A stretch of DNA of 64,000 bases from the NCBI GenBank assembly GCA_041937175.2, contig CP166615.1, forward strand, positions 4,160,001 through 4,224,000, read 5' to 3'. The position numbers were made by a program, and so were the translations under genes. The notes below the pieces were generated by a model that saw nothing but the letters and a program-made list of their open reading frames with translations, was not told the origin of the DNA and ran no database searches. This DNA comes from Limnothrix sp. BL-A-16. Lineage in GTDB: Bacteria; Cyanobacteriota; Cyanobacteriia; CACIAM-69d. Below, in pieces: positions 19,345 to 40,572 of the stretch; within the stretch, counting starts at the first letter, position 1, and every line of letters begins with the position of its first letter.

Positions 19345-20754
19345 ATGACCCTTGAATCGCTCGATCGCCGTTCGCGCATTGCCGTTGCTTCCAATGAGGC
19401 GAATGATGTGCGGTTTTTGTCCTCCACGGGCCAGGGATTCGATGGGGTCGTGGGCTATGGCACGGGGGGCCAAGTAGACTGCACCGGTTCGCTGCTGTTG
19501 TCGGGTCAGCATGTGGTGACGGCGGCCCATTGCGTGAGCGATCGCCTGGTGAGCGACAGTAGCTATCAGGTGTATTTCGATCTGCCGGAGGGGCGACAGT
19601 CGGTGCGGGTGCGACAAATTTTTGTCCATCCCAACTGGGACAATTTCGATCCGGATTCCAACAACGATGTGGCGATCCTATGGCTCGATTCCCGCGCTCC
19701 CGATGGGGCCGATCGCTACGATATTTACCGCAGTGGCGATGAAGTAGGGCAGGTGGCGACCCTGGTGGGCTATGGTCAGCCGGGCACAGGCAGTGTTGGG
19801 GAGCTGGTCGGTGATTTTCCCGCCATTCGCCGGTTAGGAACCAACCGCATTGATGGGCTAGGGGATGTTTTAAACCGCCGGTCGAATGTGGCCGTGCTGC
19901 CTGGAACTCAGTTGATCTATGACTTTGACAATGGCACCGATCGCAATGATGGCCTAGGGCGTGATTTTGGCCTGCTCGATCGGGGCACGGGCAGCACTGA
20001 AGTGGGATCCAGCAGTGGCGACTCCGGGGGGCCCTTGTTTCTGGGCAACCGCGTGGCCGGGGTGGTGTCCTATGGCGCTGTGCCCCGGGCCACGGGAGCC
20101 GATGTGACCGGTGCAAACGACACCAGCTACGGCGAAATTTTTGCGGCGACCCGGCTTTCGACCTTTTCCAGTTGGATTGACAGCACGATCGCTCGCACCC
20201 TTTCCGGCAGTGATCTGTTGGTCGGGACCAATCGCCCCGACACCCTTTCCGGCAACCAAGGCAACGACACCCTGGCGGGTCGCGACGGGAATGATTTTCT
20301 CTCCGGCGGCCGCGATGACGATCGCCTCGAAGGCGGTGATGGTGATGATGATCTGTATGGGAACCTGGGCAATGACCTGCTCTTTGGGGAAGCGGGCAAC
20401 GACAGCCTCTTTGGTGGCCAAGGCGATGACACCCTGATCGGCGGCGATGGGAATGATTGGCTGAGTGGCGATCGGGGAGTGGACTTGCTGACGGGTGGAG
20501 CCGGAGTCGATCGCTTCATTCTCAATCCCACCACCGCCGACAGTAACCCTGCCCTAGCCGACATCATCACCGACTTCAGCGCGGAAGATGTGATTAGTCT
20601 CGCGGGAGGCTTAACGGCCAGTGCGATCGCTTTGGAAGTGGGCAATCTGCGCAACACGTCAGGGACATTTATTCGTGGCGCGGGTGTTGTGTTGGGATTT
20701 GTCAACAACACCGATCCCAGTCAGTTAGCCGGCCGTTTTGAGGCGATCGGGTAA
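19345..20754 (+). CDS. Trypsin-like serine protease with RTX Ca-binding repeats
   Basis: TAAHC, NNDVA and GDSGGP triad; about 10 GGxGxDxL-type nonapeptides near the C-terminus. Confidence 0.9.
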
Positions 20755-20815
20755 CGTCGCCTGCTAGAACGGAGGGCAGCACCCGCTTGCTTGGCCGTTC
20801 TCGAGGAACTACCCC

Positions 20816-21673
20816 ATGTCGTTTCCATCCCAGGATTACCAAATTGCCGTCATGGCTCACGAGGAGCTGTCGATCGCGATCGATTGGGCAAGGGCAGAGG
20901 GGTGGAATCCTGGGCTACATGACGCGGACTGTTTCTATGCAGCAGATCCCCAGGGATTTCTGGTGGGCAAGCTGGATCACCAACCGATCGCGACCATTTC
21001 CGCTGTCAAATACGGCCATTCCTTTGGCTTCATTGGGTTTTACATTGTCCACCCAGACGCTCGGCATCAAGGCTATGGCATCCAAATTTGGCAGCGTGCC
21101 ATAGAGATCTTGGAAGGCCGAACGATCGGCTTAGATGGCGTGGTTGCCCAACAAGAGAATTACCAAAAATCAGGATTTACCTTTGCCCATCGCAATATCC
21201 GCTTTGCGGGCATCAGCGATCGGGCCGATCAACTCCACCCCGATCTTGTGCCTTTATCCGTCATCCCCTTTGAGCAATTGAAACAGTGCGATCGTCGCTT
21301 TTTTCCTGAGCAACGCGAGCAATTTTTACGCGCTTGGATTGATCAGCCTCACGCTCAGTCCATGGGAATTCTGGAGGGCGATCGGCTCTGTGCCTATGGC
21401 GTGATTCGTGCGTGCCACACCGGCTACAAAATCGGCCCACTCAATGCTGAAACCCCAGACCTCGCCGATGCACTGATCCAAGCCTTGATGAGCACCATTC
21501 CATTGGGATCAACCTTCCATTTAGATGTACCTGAACCTAATACTCCGGCGATCGCCCTAGCTGAAATGTATGGGATGCAGCCAGCTTTTGAAACTGCGCG
21601 CATGTACCGAGGGCGCTCACCGGAGCTGCCTTTAGGTCAAATATTTGGAATTACCAGCTTCGAGCTGGGGTGA
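20816..21673 (+). CDS. Tandem GNAT acetyltransferase (YitH-like)
   Basis: WARAEGWNPG, FIGFYIVHPDARHQGYG, YKIGPL, FETARMY. Confidence 0.88.
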   Translation: MSFPSQDYQIAVMAHEELSIAIDWARAEGWNPGLHDADCFYAADPQGFLVGKLDHQPIATISAVKYGHSFGFIGFYIVHPDARHQGYGIQIWQRAIEILEGRTIGLDGVVAQQENYQKSGFTFAHRNIRFAGISDRADQLHPDLVPLSVIPFEQLKQCDRRFFPEQREQFLRAWIDQPHAQSMGILEGDRLCAYGVIRACHTGYKIGPLNAETPDLADALIQALMSTIPLGSTFHLDVPEPNTPAIALAEMYGMQPAFETARMYRGRSPELPLGQIFGITSFELG

Positions 21674-32370: not shown

Positions 32371-32571
32371 ATCGTCCATTCCCGCTCATCGTCCTGATTT
32401 CGGCCCTGAGCATCCGGTTCTAGACCGCTACCCGATCGCCGGCCTCGTTAAGATAGAAGGCCCCAAGCGGCGGTTCGCGAACCAAAAGTCGGGCCCTGTC
32501 GTCAATTGGCGTTAGAGTAGCCACAATGCGCGATCAACCGTCGCTTTCTACTGTTGTTGAGTTTCGTTGGT

Positions 32572-34410
32572 ATGGTTCAGCAATTGCCCGATCGTCCCCT
32601 GCCCGCCGCCGACCAGGTTGATAAAATCACCCTGCCGAAAACTAGCGAATCGGAAACGCTGAAGAAAATTCGCCACACCACTTCCCATGTGATGGCCATG
32701 GCGGTGCAGCGCTTGTTTCCCAAGGCCCAAGTGACGATCGGCCCCTGGATCGAAAACGGCTTTTACTACGATTTTGATAGCCCTGAACCCTTCAGTGAAG
32801 AGGCGTTGAAGGCGATCAAAAAAGAGATGATCAAAATCATCAACAAAAAGCTGCCGGTGATTCGCGAAGAGGTGTCCCGCGAGGAAGCCAAGCGCCGAAT
32901 TGAGGCGATCGGGGAACCCTACAAACTGGAAATTCTCGACGACATCAAAACCGAGCCAATCACGATCTATCACCTGGGCGATCAGTGGTGGGATCTTTGC
33001 GCCGGGCCCCACTTGGAAAACACCTCGGAAATTAACCCCAAGGCGATCGAATTGGAAACGGTGGCCGGAGCCTATTGGCGCGGTGATGCCACCAAGGCCC
33101 AGCTCCAACGGATCTATGGCACGGCCTGGGAAAGCCCCGAGCAACTGACCGAATATAAACGCCGCAAGGAAGAAGCCCTCAAGCGCGATCACCGCAAACT
33201 GGGCAAAGACCTGGGGCTGTTTATCTTCGCCGATCCCGTCGGGCCCGGCTTGCCCCTCTGGACTCCCAAGGGCACGATGCTGCGATCGATCCTGGAGGAC
33301 TTCCTCAAAGGCGAACAGGTGAAACGTGGCTACTTGCCCGTGGTCACGCCCCACATTGCCCGGGTGGATTTGTTCAAAACCTCCGGCCACTGGCAAAAAT
33401 ACAAGGAAGACATGTTCCCGATGATGGCCGAGTCGCCGGACGAGGCGGCCGCCGAATTGGGCTTTGTGCTGAAGCCGATGAACTGCCCCTTCCACATCCA
33501 AATCTTTAAGAGCCAGTTGCGATCGTACCGAGAGCTGCCGATGCGCCTGGCGGAATTTGGCACAGTCTATCGCTACGAGCAGTCCGGCGAGCTGGGCGGC
33601 CTAACAAGGGTACGCGGCTTCACGGTGGATGACTCCCACCTATTCGTGGCTCCCGAGCAACTCGACGCGGAATTTCTGAAGGTGGTGGATCTGATCCTGA
33701 CGGTGTTCAGGGCGCTGCAACTGAAAAACTTCAAAGCGCGCCTTAGCTTCCGCGATCCCGACTCCGACAAGTACATCGGCTCCGATGAGGCCTGGAACAA
33801 GGCCCAAAACGCCATTCGATCGGCCGTGCAAACTCTGGGCATGAGTTCCTTTGAAGCCCCCGGCGAAGCGGCCTTCTACGGGCCCAAGCTGGACTTTATT
33901 TTCCAAGATGCCCTGGAGCGCGAGTGGCAACTGGGGACGGTGCAGGTGGATTACAACCTGCCGGAGCGCTTCGATTTGGAATATGTGGCGGCCGATGGCA
34001 GCCGCCAGCGGCCGGTGATGATCCACCGGGCCCCCTTCGGCTCGATCGAGCGGCTGGTGGGCATCCTGATCGAAGAATATGCCGGAGATTTCCCCTTCTG
34101 GTTGGCTCCGGAGCAAATTCGGCTGTTGCCCGTGGGCGACAACTTCCGCGACTATGCCGATCGAGTCGTGGAGCAACTGCAAATGGCGGGCATTCGGGCC
34201 ACGGTGGATGGTTCGGGCGATCGGCTGGGCAAAATTGTCCGCAACGCCGAAAAGGAAAAAATCCCCGTGATGGCCGTGGTCGGTGAAAAAGAATTGGAAA
34301 CCAACAGCCTCAGCCTTCGCACCCGGGCTGACGGCGACTTGGGATCGGTGACGGTGGCCACCACGATCGAACGGGCCACGGCCGCCAACCGCGATCGCGC
34401 TGCCTTCTAA
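32572..34410 (+). CDS. thrS: Threonine--tRNA ligase
   Basis: IRHTTSHVMA, DLCAGPH, RDHRKLG, KPMNCP, YRYEQSG, AAFYGPK, HRAPFGSIER. Confidence 0.98.
   Translation: MVQQLPDRPLPAADQVDKITLPKTSESETLKKIRHTTSHVMAMAVQRLFPKAQVTIGPWIENGFYYDFDSPEPFSEEALKAIKKEMIKIINKKLPVIREEVSREEAKRRIEAIGEPYKLEILDDIKTEPITIYHLGDQWWDLCAGPHLENTSEINPKAIELETVAGAYWRGDATKAQLQRIYGTAWESPEQLTEYKRRKEEALKRDHRKLGKDLGLFIFADPVGPGLPLWTPKGTMLRSILEDFLKGEQVKRGYLPVVTPHIARVDLFKTSGHWQKYKEDMFPMMAESPDEAAAELGFVLKPMNCPFHIQIFKSQLRSYRELPMRLAEFGTVYRYEQSGELGGLTRVRGFTVDDSHLFVAPEQLDAEFLKVVDLILTVFRALQLKNFKARLSFRDPDSDKYIGSDEAWNKAQNAIRSAVQTLGMSSFEAPGEAAFYGPKLDFIFQDALEREWQLGTVQVDYNLPERFDLEYVAADGSRQRPVMIHRAPFGSIERLVGILIEEYAGDFPFWLAPEQIRLLPVGDNFRDYADRVVEQLQMAGIRATVDGSGDRLGKIVRNAEKEKIPVMAVVGEKELETNSLSLRTRADGDLGSVTVATTIERATAANRDRAAF
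34339..34398. repeat. Direct repeat, left copy (attL-like, in the thrS 3' end)
   Basis: 59/60 identical to 36630-36689. Confidence 0.93.
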
Positions 34411-34526
34411 AGCATCTTGCACCTCAGGAATTGAGCGAAAGCTCTGAGTGTTGCTAGCGAGTGACTCATTAAACTTTGTCCTAGCTAGCAACGCTCTTTG
34501 CAAATCTCAAAAAGAATTTTGAAGCA

Positions 34527-35894
34527 ATGAATACTCTGCAATTAGATCGATTTTCAACTAAGCAGCGATCAGAATCATCAGGAATTAGTAGAGTAGCAAT
34601 TCAAGGCTATAAATCGATCTTTAATCAATGCTCAATTGATCTTAGCTATTTAACTGTGATTGCAGGATCTAATAGTTCTGGCAAATCCAGCCTGTTTCAG
34701 CCATTATTAATCCTTAAACAGACTCTTGAGTCTCCGTTTGATCCTGGCAGCTTATTGATCAATGGTGATTCTGTCAATATTACTTCCTTGGATCAATTGT
34801 TGTCTCATGTTCCTGATCACAGACGAAATCGCAATTTAATTATTGAGCTTGAACTTCATTTAGAGAAATCAGTTAGGCTTACGTTCTCTGAAAAGCAGAA
34901 AAAACAAGGACTAAAAATCATTGAATCCTGTTATGAAGTAAAAGATTCAGAGAAGGTTTTTGTCTTAAAGAAGGAACTATCTCAAGAGCATCTTGTTGAT
35001 CTTATGCAAAATATGATTGAAGATCGATTTGGTGATGCTGCACCTCTTATAGAAGTTTTGAAGAAATATTCAATAAACCCATTAATTGAAGGAAGTTGCT
35101 TCTTTGACTTGGGATTGACGACACCACAGTTATCACTTTCAATAGGTCTTTTTAATGATTATGCAAATGAAGTTCGACGTATTATCCATGTTTCAGGAAT
35201 TCGAAGAAACCCAGAGAGAACATATCAAAAAACAGCAATAGGTCCAGAATTTAGTGGCGCTTTTGACAAATATGTAGCTAGCGTGATCCTTGCCTGGAAA
35301 ACCGAGCAAAAATCAAAATTTAAGCAACTTAATGAAGATCTTGCTGAATTGGGCTTGACTTGGAAGATTGATGCTAGACAGTTGGATGACTCGCAATTGG
35401 AGTTGCTAGTTGGTCGCGGCCCTACCCATGGCTCAAGCAGGAATAAGAAGCACAAACCCAGTGATACCGTCAACATTGCAGATGTTGGGTTTGGAGTTTC
35501 ACAGGTTTTACCTGTCTTGGTAGCATTATTGGTTGCAGAGCCAGGGCAGCTTGTCTATATTGAGCAACCCGAAATTCATTTACATCCCAAAGCACAAGTG
35601 GCTTTAGCTAAGCTGTTAGTCCGAGCTGCACTTCGGAAAGTTCGGGTCGTTGTCGAAACCCACAGCTCTATCCTGCTACTAGCAATTCAATCATTAGTTG
35701 CTGAAGGGGAACTACCACCTTCAGACACATACCTTCATTGGGTTAGTCGTGATCCTGAAGGTATTACCGAAGTGAGTAGCCAGCAACTTGATGAAACTGG
35801 TGCTTTTGGTGACTGGCCCGAAGACTTTGCAGATACTATGTTAGATCTTAATAGTCGCTACCTAGATGCCGTGGAAAACACAATATTTGGCTGA
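34527..35894 (+). CDS. ABC/SMC-type ATPase (AAA_15/AAA_21-like, DUF3696-like C-terminus)
   Basis: IQGYKS, Walker A GSNSSGKS, signature VGFGVSQVLP, Walker B YIEQPEIHLHP, H-loop ETHS, C-terminal WPEDF. Confidence 0.88.
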   Translation: MNTLQLDRFSTKQRSESSGISRVAIQGYKSIFNQCSIDLSYLTVIAGSNSSGKSSLFQPLLILKQTLESPFDPGSLLINGDSVNITSLDQLLSHVPDHRRNRNLIIELELHLEKSVRLTFSEKQKKQGLKIIESCYEVKDSEKVFVLKKELSQEHLVDLMQNMIEDRFGDAAPLIEVLKKYSINPLIEGSCFFDLGLTTPQLSLSIGLFNDYANEVRRIIHVSGIRRNPERTYQKTAIGPEFSGAFDKYVASVILAWKTEQKSKFKQLNEDLAELGLTWKIDARQLDDSQLELLVGRGPTHGSSRNKKHKPSDTVNIADVGFGVSQVLPVLVALLVAEPGQLVYIEQPEIHLHPKAQVALAKLLVRAALRKVRVVVETHSSILLLAIQSLVAEGELPPSDTYLHWVSRDPEGITEVSSQQLDETGAFGDWPEDFADTMLDLNSRYLDAVENTIFG

Positions 35895-35925
35895 GGACTT
35901 ATCCAGAAAAATACAAAGAACTGAA

Positions 35926-36513
35926 ATGAGCAAAAAAACTGGAAAGAGCCTAGTAATCGATGCTTGCATTGCGCGATCTGCTAGCGAAACCAATCATCCT
36001 ATCTCTAGTGCATGTCGAGAATGCCTTAAATCAATTCTGAAACATTCGCACCGCATGGTTATAACAAAAGAAATTTCTCGAGAATGGAGAAAGCATCAAT
36101 CACCATTTGCTCAAGAGTGGCTCAAGACGATGTTTCAAAGAAAAAGACTTCATAGTCTTAAGCCTTCCCAAGTTGAAAACATAGATGGATTGATGGATTT
36201 TATTGACACTTTAGAATTTCAGAAAGAGAGAGAGGATGCTTATAAAGATATACATCTCATAGAAGCAGCCATAGCTTCTGACAAGAGGATTATTTCATCG
36301 GATGAGAAAACAGCACGAAAGTTTTTCAGCGCTGCGACTGAGACTGTTCCTATCATTGGAGATATCCTGTGGGCTAACCCAGTGAAGCCTGAAGAATCAG
36401 TAGCAGATTGGATCGCTCAAGGCACTCCACTGGAACCCGAGAGAACGCTTAAAGCATTTCGACAACGATCGAAAACTGCCCAAGGCTCAAGCTCGCCTGA
36501 GAGAATTGGATAG
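35926..36513 (+). CDS. PIN-domain-like protein (putative nuclease)
   Basis: N-terminal strand LVIDACI, later E(W), KDIHLIEAA and IISSDE; the acidic residue spacing is PIN-like. Confidence 0.65.
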   Translation: MSKKTGKSLVIDACIARSASETNHPISSACRECLKSILKHSHRMVITKEISREWRKHQSPFAQEWLKTMFQRKRLHSLKPSQVENIDGLMDFIDTLEFQKEREDAYKDIHLIEAAIASDKRIISSDEKTARKFFSAATETVPIIGDILWANPVKPEESVADWIAQGTPLEPERTLKAFRQRSKTAQGSSSPERIG

Positions 36514-36629
36514 AGTATTTGTCACTTCCATGTCTATCAGATTTACGATATTGCCCAATTTTCATGAATAATTGTGGCTGGTGAATTTTAATCTTTGTTG
36601 TTTTCGCTGTAAGCCAGCTACAAGGGATT

Positions 36630-36689
36630 TTGGGGTCGGTGACGGTGGCCACCACGATCGAACGGGCCACGGCCGCCAACCGCGATCGC
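36630..36689. repeat. Direct repeat, right copy (attR-like, displaced thrS 3' end)
   Basis: Reads LGSVTVATTIERATAANRDR then TDF-stop (TAG 36699-36701) in the same register as thrS. Confidence 0.93.
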
Positions 36690-36877
36690 ACCGATTTTTA
36701 GAGTTCAGGGCAGCGCCAGCCCAGAAAAGCTCTAGCCTAGGGAGGTGGAAACGGCCGATCGTGCCCCTGTCCCCGATCGGGGATGTGCCTAGGTTGCCCA
36801 TTGCCCCATCCTCGATCGTCCAACGGCTCAATAGTTCCCCATCAAGTCCCCATCACAAGTACCGCTTGAACTTTGCG

Positions 36878-37366
36878 ATGAAACTTCAATCCACAATTGC
36901 AGCGATCGCCCTGGGTTTACCGCTGCTGCTGACCCCCACCGCTGCCCAAGCCAACGAATACGATCGCTGTGTGCGCGACCTGCGCGACTCCAACATCAGC
37001 CCCGACCTGATCGCTAGCTCCTGTGCCTATGTGCTCCACCCCGAGGATTTGGGCGACTGCGTGGAGCGAATTGACGAAAAAACCACCATCTCAGCGGAAG
37101 CGGCCCTCAGAACCTGTCGGCAAGCGCGCCGCCCGATCGACACCGCCAACTGTGTGGTCAGCATCTCGCGGGCCGGAGCCGTTGACGGCAGCGCCGTTTT
37201 GGAGCACTGTCGCCGCAGTCTGCTGCCCGAACGGTTTGCCCGCTGTGTTACCACCCTGAATCGCCAGGTGACCAGTGACCTGACCACCGCCATGGGCCAA
37301 TGCATTGACGGGCGCGATCGCCCCCGTGACATGTATCCCGAATATCCCGGGCGATCGGGCAACTGA
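36878..37366 (+). CDS. Secreted cysteine-repeat hypothetical protein
   Basis: Signal peptide MKLQSTIAAIALGLPLLLTPTAAQA; 8 Cys in ~31-aa repeats. Confidence 0.8.
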   Translation: MKLQSTIAAIALGLPLLLTPTAAQANEYDRCVRDLRDSNISPDLIASSCAYVLHPEDLGDCVERIDEKTTISAEAALRTCRQARRPIDTANCVVSISRAGAVDGSAVLEHCRRSLLPERFARCVTTLNRQVTSDLTTAMGQCIDGRDRPRDMYPEYPGRSGN

Positions 37367-38887: not shown

Positions 38888-39838
38888 ATGGCGATCGATT
38901 GGCAATTTCGGCTCGGTTGTGCTGTGTGGTCTTATCCCGGTTGGGTGGGTTCCGTCTATCCTGCGGGAACTTCGGGGCAAAAAGCCCTGCGTTGTTATGG
39001 CGAGCGGTTTTGGGCCGTTGAGGGCAACACGACGTTTTATGGTGTGCCAACGGCAGCCACGGTGCAGCGCTGGGGATCGTTGGTTCCCGATGGATTTCGC
39101 TTTTGCCTGAAGTTGCCTCGGGATGTGACCCATCTGGGGCCCTTGCTCGATCGCGGGCCGGCGGCGTTGGCCTTTGCGGAGCGGGCGGCGGCCTTGGGCG
39201 ATCGGTGCGGGCCCTTGTTTGCCCAGCTTCCTCCTAGCTACGGCCCCAGCCAGAGTGCAGATTTGCGACAGTTTTTGAGTCAATGGCGACAGTCAACCGA
39301 TGTCCCTTTGGCGTTGGAGGTGCGTCACCGGGATTGGTTTTTGCCCCATTGGCGCGATCGCCTCAACGGTTGGTTACGAGAGCTGGGAATGGGGCGGGTG
39401 GTGTTGGACACGCGGCCCATTTATCGGGGTTTGGATTTGGCCCGGGAAGATCCCCAACGGCAATCCCAACGGCGCAAACCGGATTTGCCGTTGCAGGCCT
39501 GTGTAACGGCGGAGTTCGCGATCGTCCGGTTCATTTCCCACCCGGAAGCCTGGCGCAATGAGGCTTATTTGTTGGAATGGCGCGATCGGGTGTTGCGCTG
39601 GCTGGAGCGAGGGGTGCAACTGTATTTTTTTGTCCATTGCCCGATCGAGGATCATTCGCCCCACACGGCCCGCCAGTTTCAGGCTCTGCTAGAGGCGGCG
39701 ACGGTTCCGGCCGTGGCCGCGATCGCCCCTTTGCCTTGGAATCAGTTATCAGTCACCGAAGGCGCGGCCGCAATGGCCAGGGATCGGACTGGGGGCGATC
39801 GCTCCGGATCCCAAAACGATCAGCTTTCCCTGTTTTAG
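38888..39838 (+). CDS. DUF72-domain protein
   Basis: GCAVWSY..W, VEGNTTFY..P, FCLKLPR.VTH, QLPPSY, ALEVRH. Confidence 0.92.
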   Translation: MAIDWQFRLGCAVWSYPGWVGSVYPAGTSGQKALRCYGERFWAVEGNTTFYGVPTAATVQRWGSLVPDGFRFCLKLPRDVTHLGPLLDRGPAALAFAERAAALGDRCGPLFAQLPPSYGPSQSADLRQFLSQWRQSTDVPLALEVRHRDWFLPHWRDRLNGWLRELGMGRVVLDTRPIYRGLDLAREDPQRQSQRRKPDLPLQACVTAEFAIVRFISHPEAWRNEAYLLEWRDRVLRWLERGVQLYFFVHCPIEDHSPHTARQFQALLEAATVPAVAAIAPLPWNQLSVTEGAAAMARDRTGGDRSGSQNDQLSLF

Positions 39839-39841
39839 GAG

Positions 39842-39889
39842 GCCGTATTTTGAGGGAGCCGTATTTTGAGGGAGCCGTATTTTGAGGGA
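39842..39889. repeat. Tandem repeat GCCGTATTTTGAGGGA x3
   Basis: Three exact 16-bp units between convergent stop codons. Confidence 0.9.
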
Positions 39890-40460: not shown

Positions 40461-40572
40461 ACAGGGTGGTTGAAACTGATCAATCAAAACTCATCCTCTA
40501 CCCTAGGAACTGCTTTACAGGGTGGTTGAAACTGATCAATCAAAACTCATCTTCTATCCTAGGGACTGCTTT
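40461..40572. repeat. Tandem duplication 56 bp x2
   Basis: 40461-40516 vs 40517-40572 with 3 mismatches; includes the stop codon of the adjacent minus-strand gene. Confidence 0.9.

Follow-up and report, generated by a model that had tools for sequence, protein, structure and literature searches.

How does a gene cassette without a recombinase come to lie between a working housekeeping gene and a second copy of that gene's 3′ end? The cyanobacterium Limnothrix sp. BL-A-16 poses this question at thrS, the gene for threonine-tRNA ligase, which is followed by a 2231-bp AT-rich islet and then by a displaced thrS end. The window analyzed here is a 64,000-nt stretch of contig CP166615.1 (positions 4,160,001–4,224,000 of the forward strand), and all coordinates are positions within it. 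An islet-free version of the site exists in a relative of the same genus (G002, ~93% identical), the 60-bp target is duplicated, the DNA between the copies is foreign in composition, and the live gene switches to the tail of another lineage (represented by L055, a metagenome contig) within nine nucleotides, a C followed by the highly iterated palindrome HIP1. We place at about even odds (probability roughly 0.5) an integrase-free insertion with a 60-bp target duplication, made by host recombination with DNA from a related cyanobacterium, in which one crossover likely fell inside the HIP1 motif at the thrS end. The features at the junctions are:

34339..34398, + strand: left 60-bp repeat, inside thrS (sequence comparison)
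36630..36689, + strand: right 60-bp repeat, the displaced original thrS end (sequence comparison, empty site, run contigs)
32554..34410, + strand: thrS, threonine-tRNA ligase, live copy ending NRDRAAF, likely start ATG at 32572 (TIGR00418, E = 6e-226, over cut-off)
34390..34398, + strand: 9-nt interval, C plus HIP1, in which the live gene passes from G002-type to L055-type; probable site of crossover (map of single-nucleotide differences)
34399..34410, + strand: incoming thrS tail, AAF-TAA (11/12 nt as in the L055 thrS end, 5/12 as in G002)
36690..36701, + strand: original tail, TDF-TAG (TNF-TAG in G002 and in sequencing run X1)
36878..37366, + strand: Cys-rich gene of secreted type, directly after thrS at the empty site (synteny in G002 and in L056, a second metagenome locus); no Pfam or NCBIfam match

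A displaced thrS end and a second tail allele

The basic layout described by an earlier, sequence-only reading of this locus was accurate. The two repeats agree at 59 of 60 positions, the sole mismatch being GGA/GGG; both end in GCGATCGC, the HIP1 motif (34391–34398 and 36682–36689), and both run in frame to a stop codon 12 nt past the repeat, as AAF-TAA in the live copy and TDF-TAG in the displaced one. The 60-mer occurs only twice in the whole 4.54-Mb chromosome. The DNA between the copies is, as described, AT-rich, HIP1-free and integrase-less: it has 40.1% GC (vs 55% for the genome), no HIP1 site (2.6 expected, P = 0.08, weak alone), a single CGATCG where 12.8 were expected, and two open reading frames (ORFs), neither of which matched a recombinase family in our searches. 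The claim that identity breaks immediately after HIP1 holds for the 60-bp repeats as such, but the ungapped match between the copies continues past HIP1 through the stop codon, to 74 nt at 91%, with no jump into unrelated DNA. The true loss of homology sits at the stop codon, not at HIP1, and both tails are thrS alleles.

Public sequencing runs show the duplication to be real. Fifteen runs hold the stretch, and eight of them, from eight studies, were compared in two sets of four; all eight cover most of the cargo. The left junction is bridged by a contig from run X10 (34339–34608) and the right junction by contigs from X5 and X8 (to 36689); the remaining contigs reach over the junctions by 28–30 letters only, and none spans the whole stretch. 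In X11, the 60-mer is assembled on its own, with roughly double the depth of the adjoining contigs. Islet depth lies below that of the flanks in X1, X6, and X7, which we do not take as evidence of empty sites since unitigs collapse the repeat. The bridging contigs of X10, X5, and X8, together with the empty site in G002, exclude an assembly artefact, a doubt that had been raised when the locus was first read.

The GGA/GGG mismatch is strain-specific: position 36635 is A in all four runs of one set, where the copies agree at 60/60. We therefore rejected it as a crossover marker, as it represents a later change in the BL-A-16 strain. Strains with A at 36635 have a GATC 4 nt inside the start of the right repeat. 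Position 36690 is G in two of the four runs of the second set, extending identity at least one base beyond HIP1 in those strains. Separately, a 34-bp stretch near the right end of the islet (36560–36593) occurs in contigs with the same unrelated flanks in X3, X5, X7, and X10, which probably derive from another organism.

In G002, whose comparison covered ~1.7 of 4.5 Mb, thrS has one repeat copy and the ending RDRTNF-TAG, and the Cys-rich gene follows immediately. Because this empty site holds its single copy there, the downstream copy in BL-A-16 is the original thrS end. An empty site adjoining the Cys-rich gene had been predicted, and islet-free G002 indeed carries one copy, not both; the predicted ending, RDRTDF, was not the one found. 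No duplicated thrS end was seen in two same-genus genomes (G001, G002) or at two metagenome loci (L055, L056); the latter are the yield of a metagenome pattern scan from which records close to the BL-A-16 genome may be left out. Among the matches listed for the eight lake and isolate runs, no cargo other than the ATPase–PIN gene pair described below occupies the site, and none occupies it in G001, G002, L055, or L056. The notion of a variable cargo hotspot thus found no support within the genus.

Judged by its codons, the AAF tail of the live gene is a natural thrS allele of another lineage: L055, from a related lineage (90.6% identical over 320 bp), ends with the same AAF codons and has no islet, which rules out random read-through as the source of AAF. 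The left repeat is identical to G002 at 60/60 positions and to L055 at 49/60. Over the 309 nt that precede the tail, the live gene agrees with G002 alone at 21 sites, with L055 alone at 8, and with neither at 9; in the 12-nt tail, it agrees with L055 alone at 6 sites and with G002 alone at none. G002-type sites end at 34389 and L055-type tail sites begin at 34399. The crossover would have lain in HIP1 if the donor resembled L055 upstream. The tails TNF, TDF, TTF, ADF, and AAF all occur after RDR in the family. The swapped C-terminus that had been proposed is real as a difference between tails, but it concerns only three residues, both versions are natural alleles, and the change lies outside the anticodon-binding domain (residues 521–606 of 618) and is likely neutral.

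Host-sequence duplications and GATC at their ends

In the route that we propose, DNA taken up from a related cyanobacterium would have carried a thrS tail (AAF and stop) followed by the ATPase and PIN genes. The donor thrS end would have joined the resident gene at the shared HIP1, and a short-homology (illegitimate) event would have attached the far end 60 bp upstream, beside a second GATC, with or without prior closure of the donor piece into a circle. The product would be a working thrS, then the cargo, then the old gene end; from then on, normal homologous recombination on both sides could spread the islet, and recombination of one repeat with the other could remove it. Short-homology or HIP1-assisted recombination had been among the original suggestions, and the allele switch inside C plus HIP1 fits it.

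This route is supported by the same architecture, with other genes and other repeat lengths, at other loci in BL-A-16 and at one in G002, and by the dprA and comEC families present in the BL-A-16 genome. Direct repeats of host sequence (~40–400 bp) around AT-rich cargo are common in the BL-A-16 genome, where 28 pairs passed our filters. The phosphoketolase 3′ end has several displaced copies with different starts and restriction-modification (RM) cargo, the 5′ end of a GidA-family gene is duplicated over 319 bp with RM cargo, the 3′ end of a flavin oxidoreductase gene is duplicated over 152 bp, and repeats of 150–252 bp surround toxin–antitoxin pairs. In G002 (L097:4911–10425), a 5233-bp AT-rich insert that includes an EAD4/NB-ARC-like ATPase is flanked by 141-bp repeats without a mismatch and gives an ABC-transporter ATPase a different C-terminus; this site is empty in BL-A-16.

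The displaced phosphoketolase 3′ ends separate RM-rich cassettes (L036:4284–11694, L060:8585–8898), and G002 has one such fragment, with its cargo, on another contig. At 20748–20933, 184 bp are replaced in G002 by 3206 bp with genes for cytochrome bd oxidase subunits I and II (L119:10346–13553); both homology ends stop exactly after GATC, and the difference may be a loss in BL-A-16 or a gain in G002.

The GATC core of HIP1 is overrepresented at the duplication ends. Among 36 ends that flank AT-rich DNA, eight have a GATC ending 0–2 nt inside the boundary where 1.2 would be expected (binomial P = 2e-5), and GATC ranks first among 4-mers; this bias was found and tested on the same genome, with partly dependent ends and the thrS case included. 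Four of these ends read exactly GCGATC and then pass into unrelated DNA. Controls with GC-richer interiors gave 2/19 and 3/47, and in 21 pairs listed by hand, 7 of 42 ends qualified where the repeats' own GATC density predicts 1.7. With a wider search interval, picked after viewing the data, the count was 14/36 against a mean of 4 in slid intervals and 7/47 in the GC-rich control; pooled with relatives, it was 19/61 against 12/72 in controls (Fisher P = 0.04). One exact GATC end (C1:4313964) was dropped, as homology picks up again beyond a single mismatch. Within the BL-A-16 genome the bias is real, but it is weakly replicated.

The reuse of one genome and the late choice of interval weigh against the proposed route, as do several other results. 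Relatives gave 5 of 25 ends in the wider interval (P = 0.19), without significant replication of the bias; breakpoints between BL-A-16 and G002 fall within 2 nt of GATC in only 7 of 95 cases; the 141-bp case in G002 ends 6 and 11 nt from GATC; and a HIP1 junction is present in only one of three other thrS-end duplications (in G190, not in G240 or G416). No match to a MutH or DpnII family able to cut GATC was obtained in the genome. The donor was not found, L055 being a stand-in without cargo. HIP1 encodes RDR, which is kept in all aligned family members except G003, and a break at HIP1 is partly expected because RDR is conserved and the last three codons vary freely. Natural competence of BL-A-16, finally, is putative.

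How the islet may have entered

A broader version of the proposed route is tentative: cyanobacteria would have a host pathway for capturing foreign genes without an integrase, and it would cut and join preferentially at HIP1 and its GATC core. Such a pathway would splice in DNA from a relative where both share a HIP1, join the other end close to a second GATC, duplicate the target, and repair the gene with the donor allele. If it were true, the thrS islet would record a capture crossover at 9-nt resolution, and the same pathway would stock the genome with defense cassettes. What HIP1 does has been a question for three decades (PMC13756078). HIP1-bounded deletion and site-specific recombination have been reported (as cited in PMC13756078, PMC4390886), mutH has been reported absent from cyanobacteria (PMC5101192), and homologous, methylated HIP1 sites raise integration during natural transformation in PCC 7002 (10.1101/2024.09.10.611283); a further paper has only a general bearing (PMC9239245). 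Our search of the open-access literature found no mapping of natural insertion junctions to HIP1. Laboratory work ties HIP1 to transformation. The thrS locus, with a probable natural crossover confined to C plus HIP1 and a verified empty site, offers a natural test case for the role of the motif.

The same integrase-free insertion and duplication could also have occurred with HIP1 incidental, which we consider possible though doubtful. A close donor strain would already have had the AAF tail, and a single crossover could have fallen anywhere in the 60 bp; identity would stop at HIP1 only through the conserved RDR codons and the drift of the last three. The variety of tails that follow RDR, the G at 36690 that segregates in lake populations, the continuation of the match at 91% to 74 nt, the G002 141-bp, G240, and G416 duplications without a true HIP1 junction end, and the weak replication of the GATC bias all agree with this explanation. 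It sits less well with the distribution of differences, as 7 of the 12 tail sites depart from G002 (six of the tail sites being L055-only) and none of the preceding 60 bp do. Nor would conservation of HIP1 yield the four other duplications that end exactly in GCGATC before unrelated DNA. If HIP1 is incidental, the islet is an ordinary example of a described rearrangement.

An integrase-bearing element that entered an attachment (att) site at the thrS 3′ end, brought a copy of that end with it, and afterwards lost its integrase or came to be moved by a recombinase in trans would have left a remnant like a cis-mobilizable element (CIME); we judge this unlikely. Elements with a tyrosine integrase usually leave a direct repeat that contains a housekeeping gene's 3′ end, and the islet resembles a CIME in lying, without an integrase, between such repeats (see PMC5704250). 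Duplicated thrS ends also occur in 3 of 44 other cyanobacterial loci, all from other families, in a sample biased to genomes with double matches. These duplications begin about 187, about 200, and more than 227 nt ahead of the stop, vs 72 nt in BL-A-16, and unlike a CIME the islet shows no fixed att core across the thrS duplications and no parent element was found. The loci are L163 (G190), L189 (G240), and L181 (G416), with thrS 3′ ends duplicated downstream, unrelated inserts, and 207, at least 142, and 228 bp aligned, respectively. The displaced end in G190 begins right after the GATC of a different thrS HIP1; G416 was rejected as a second HIP1 junction, as codon-level similarity continues upstream of the BLAST end.

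A thrS-tail protein search in 401 genomes returned second matches in many genomes among the matches listed, and in 19 of 20 such genomes that were followed there was no thrS duplication within 6.6–12 kb downstream. No integrase-bearing element was seen at thrS in two same-genus genomes, two metagenome loci, and 44 thrS loci, among which close strains are few. The islet has no recombinase, and a genome-wide search for the PF00589 and PF00239 families gave a single match to the first and a single weak match to the second, both separated from the islet by hundreds of kb or by megabases. Relatives of the cargo lie beside thrS in 0 of 14 genomes, and none of the 13 ORFs nearest upstream of them matches an integrase family. 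Our literature search returned no report of thrS as an attachment site. The att-site explanation is weak because host sequences in the genome are duplicated alike, the thrS duplications differ, and the cargo is not tied to thrS; the dedicated att site mobilized in trans that the sequence-only reading put forward is not borne out by the varied duplication ends, the many duplications of sequences other than thrS, the cargo's absence beside thrS elsewhere, or the lone PF00589 match.

Staggered breaks made by the cargo or another host nuclease at two GATC sites ~50 bp apart, with the islet patched in, are very improbable: PIN proteins are mostly RNases, no GATC-cutting family was found, most other duplications have GATC at one end at most, and cuts alone leave the incoming thrS allele unexplained. 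Such breaks would suit the two GATC sites, one within HIP1 at the 3′ end and the other, where position 36635 is A, 4 nt in from the 5′ end; they would also suit the suggestion that double-strand breakage is the common cause of long target duplications with RM genes (PMC2853133).

An ATPase–PIN cassette among known systems

The islet encodes two proteins, preceded by a predicted hairpin:

34527..35894, + strand: ABC/SMC-type ATPase, 455 aa, NsnB-like (Pfam AAA_15, AAA_21, weak C-terminal DUF3696; PADLOC)
35926..36513, + strand, alternative start 35866: predicted PIN-fold protein, 195 aa (structure model, structural alignment)
34446..34496, + strand: hairpin with a 13-bp stem in the gap between thrS and the ATPase gene, inside the islet (fold of 34411–34526)

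In PADLOC, the ATPase matched NsnB best (3e-57) and the HEC-03B model second (2e-44), and its DUF3696 match of 21.1 bits falls just below the cut-off of 22. The second protein matched no Pfam, NCBIfam, or PADLOC model, and neither a sequence search of PDB nor Foldseek returned a match at E ≤ 0.001. Its structure model (mean predicted local distance difference test, pLDDT, 89) aligned best with VapC21 in VIA-align (Z 9.2, root-mean-square deviation 3.3, 130 residues aligned), and the top rows were nearly all PIN proteins. Residues D12, E53, D108, and D126 are conserved across an alignment of 17 homologs and probably form the PIN active site.

The PIN family, for which Pfam, NCBIfam, and PADLOC have no model, is large, with 1872 representatives (E ≤ 0.001, 50% clustering), and homologs occur in 14 of 400 other genomes of the phylum. 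A full-length ATPase gene lies directly upstream of the homolog in 11 of the 14, a fragment in 1, and none in 2 (one at a contig end). Among the nearest upstream ORFs of these relatives, 0 of 13 belong to DUF262 and 0 of 13 to an integrase family, and 2 of 13 match no family at all. No relative of the PIN protein was present among 118 pattern matches in a contig scan of genomes. Flanking repeats at 4 of the 14 loci appeared by eye to be dispersed repeats and were rejected as gene-end duplications. By analogy, these data suggest that the cargo is a two-gene module of an ATPase and a predicted RNA-cutting protein, likely anti-phage, and that it most likely works as HEC-03 does, as an ATPase-controlled PIN nuclease serving as a defense or toxin module.

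HEC-03 consists of an ATPase and a PIN protein, both required for defense, and shares with the islet the order of ATPase gene and then PIN gene (10.1101/2024.01.29.577857). In contrast, 0 of 17 PIN homologs match a HEC-03 model, and the HEC-03 match of the ATPase (2e-44) is second to NsnB. The islet resembles the NsnB–NsnC pair of Menshen in having an NsnB-type ATPase with a DUF3696 tail followed by a PIN-fold partner, but its PIN protein stands alone and keeps its acidic residues, whereas NsnC is an inactive PIN domain fused to an effector (PMC12065111). Unlike Menshen, the islet has two genes only, with no DUF262 gene or NsnA (ParB-DUF262), and its PIN protein matches no Nsn model. By the models and gene content, the islet is not a HEC-03 member and not Menshen.

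As a rearrangement, the islet most closely recalls insertion with long target duplication (Nobusato et al. 2000, as cited; Furuta et al. 2010, PMC2853133), which has been reported for RM genes, in Microcystis among others (88 bp), and mostly in naturally competent species (PMC2853133). Like those insertions, it has a unique target, a 60-bp duplication (>30 bp), a 2231-bp insert (<20 kb), no mobility gene, and an empty site, and the repeat length varies between loci (PMC2853133). It differs in its cargo, an ABC ATPase and a PIN protein where the published search criterion was RM genes, and in bringing the gene tail of another lineage with one junction at HIP1, a motif unmentioned in the main text of that paper (PMC2853133). 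The thrS islet extends this kind of insertion from RM genes to an ATPase–PIN pair. It can also be set beside homology-facilitated illegitimate recombination and insertion-duplication during natural transformation. The classical outcome is replacement with deletion, whereas in the route proposed for the islet the second join would lie upstream of the first and the target is duplicated. What they have in common is the entry of foreign DNA through one homologous and one illegitimate join, with no recombinase (PMC2884548).

Several minor features complete the description of the locus and genome. A simple pattern for the attC site of integron cassettes (RYYYAAC..GTTRRRY) had no match on either strand, a promoter and terminator scan stayed at chance level, and the one Rfam match (E = 0.99) was dismissed as chance. 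The region 34411–34526 folds at −39.6 kcal/mol (z −3.67, with 0 of 200 shuffles as stable), and the hairpin at 34446–34496 may be terminator-like or operator-like, as predicted from the fold. Elsewhere in the genome (G000 C1:3410242–3411850), two similar tandem ORFs of 221–224 aa are separated by 110 bp copied from the 5′ end of the following gene, and G002 is without one unit. In intergenic DNA of the window, a 56-bp sequence is duplicated in tandem (95%) at 40461–40572, and a 16-bp unit occurs three times at 39833–39889.

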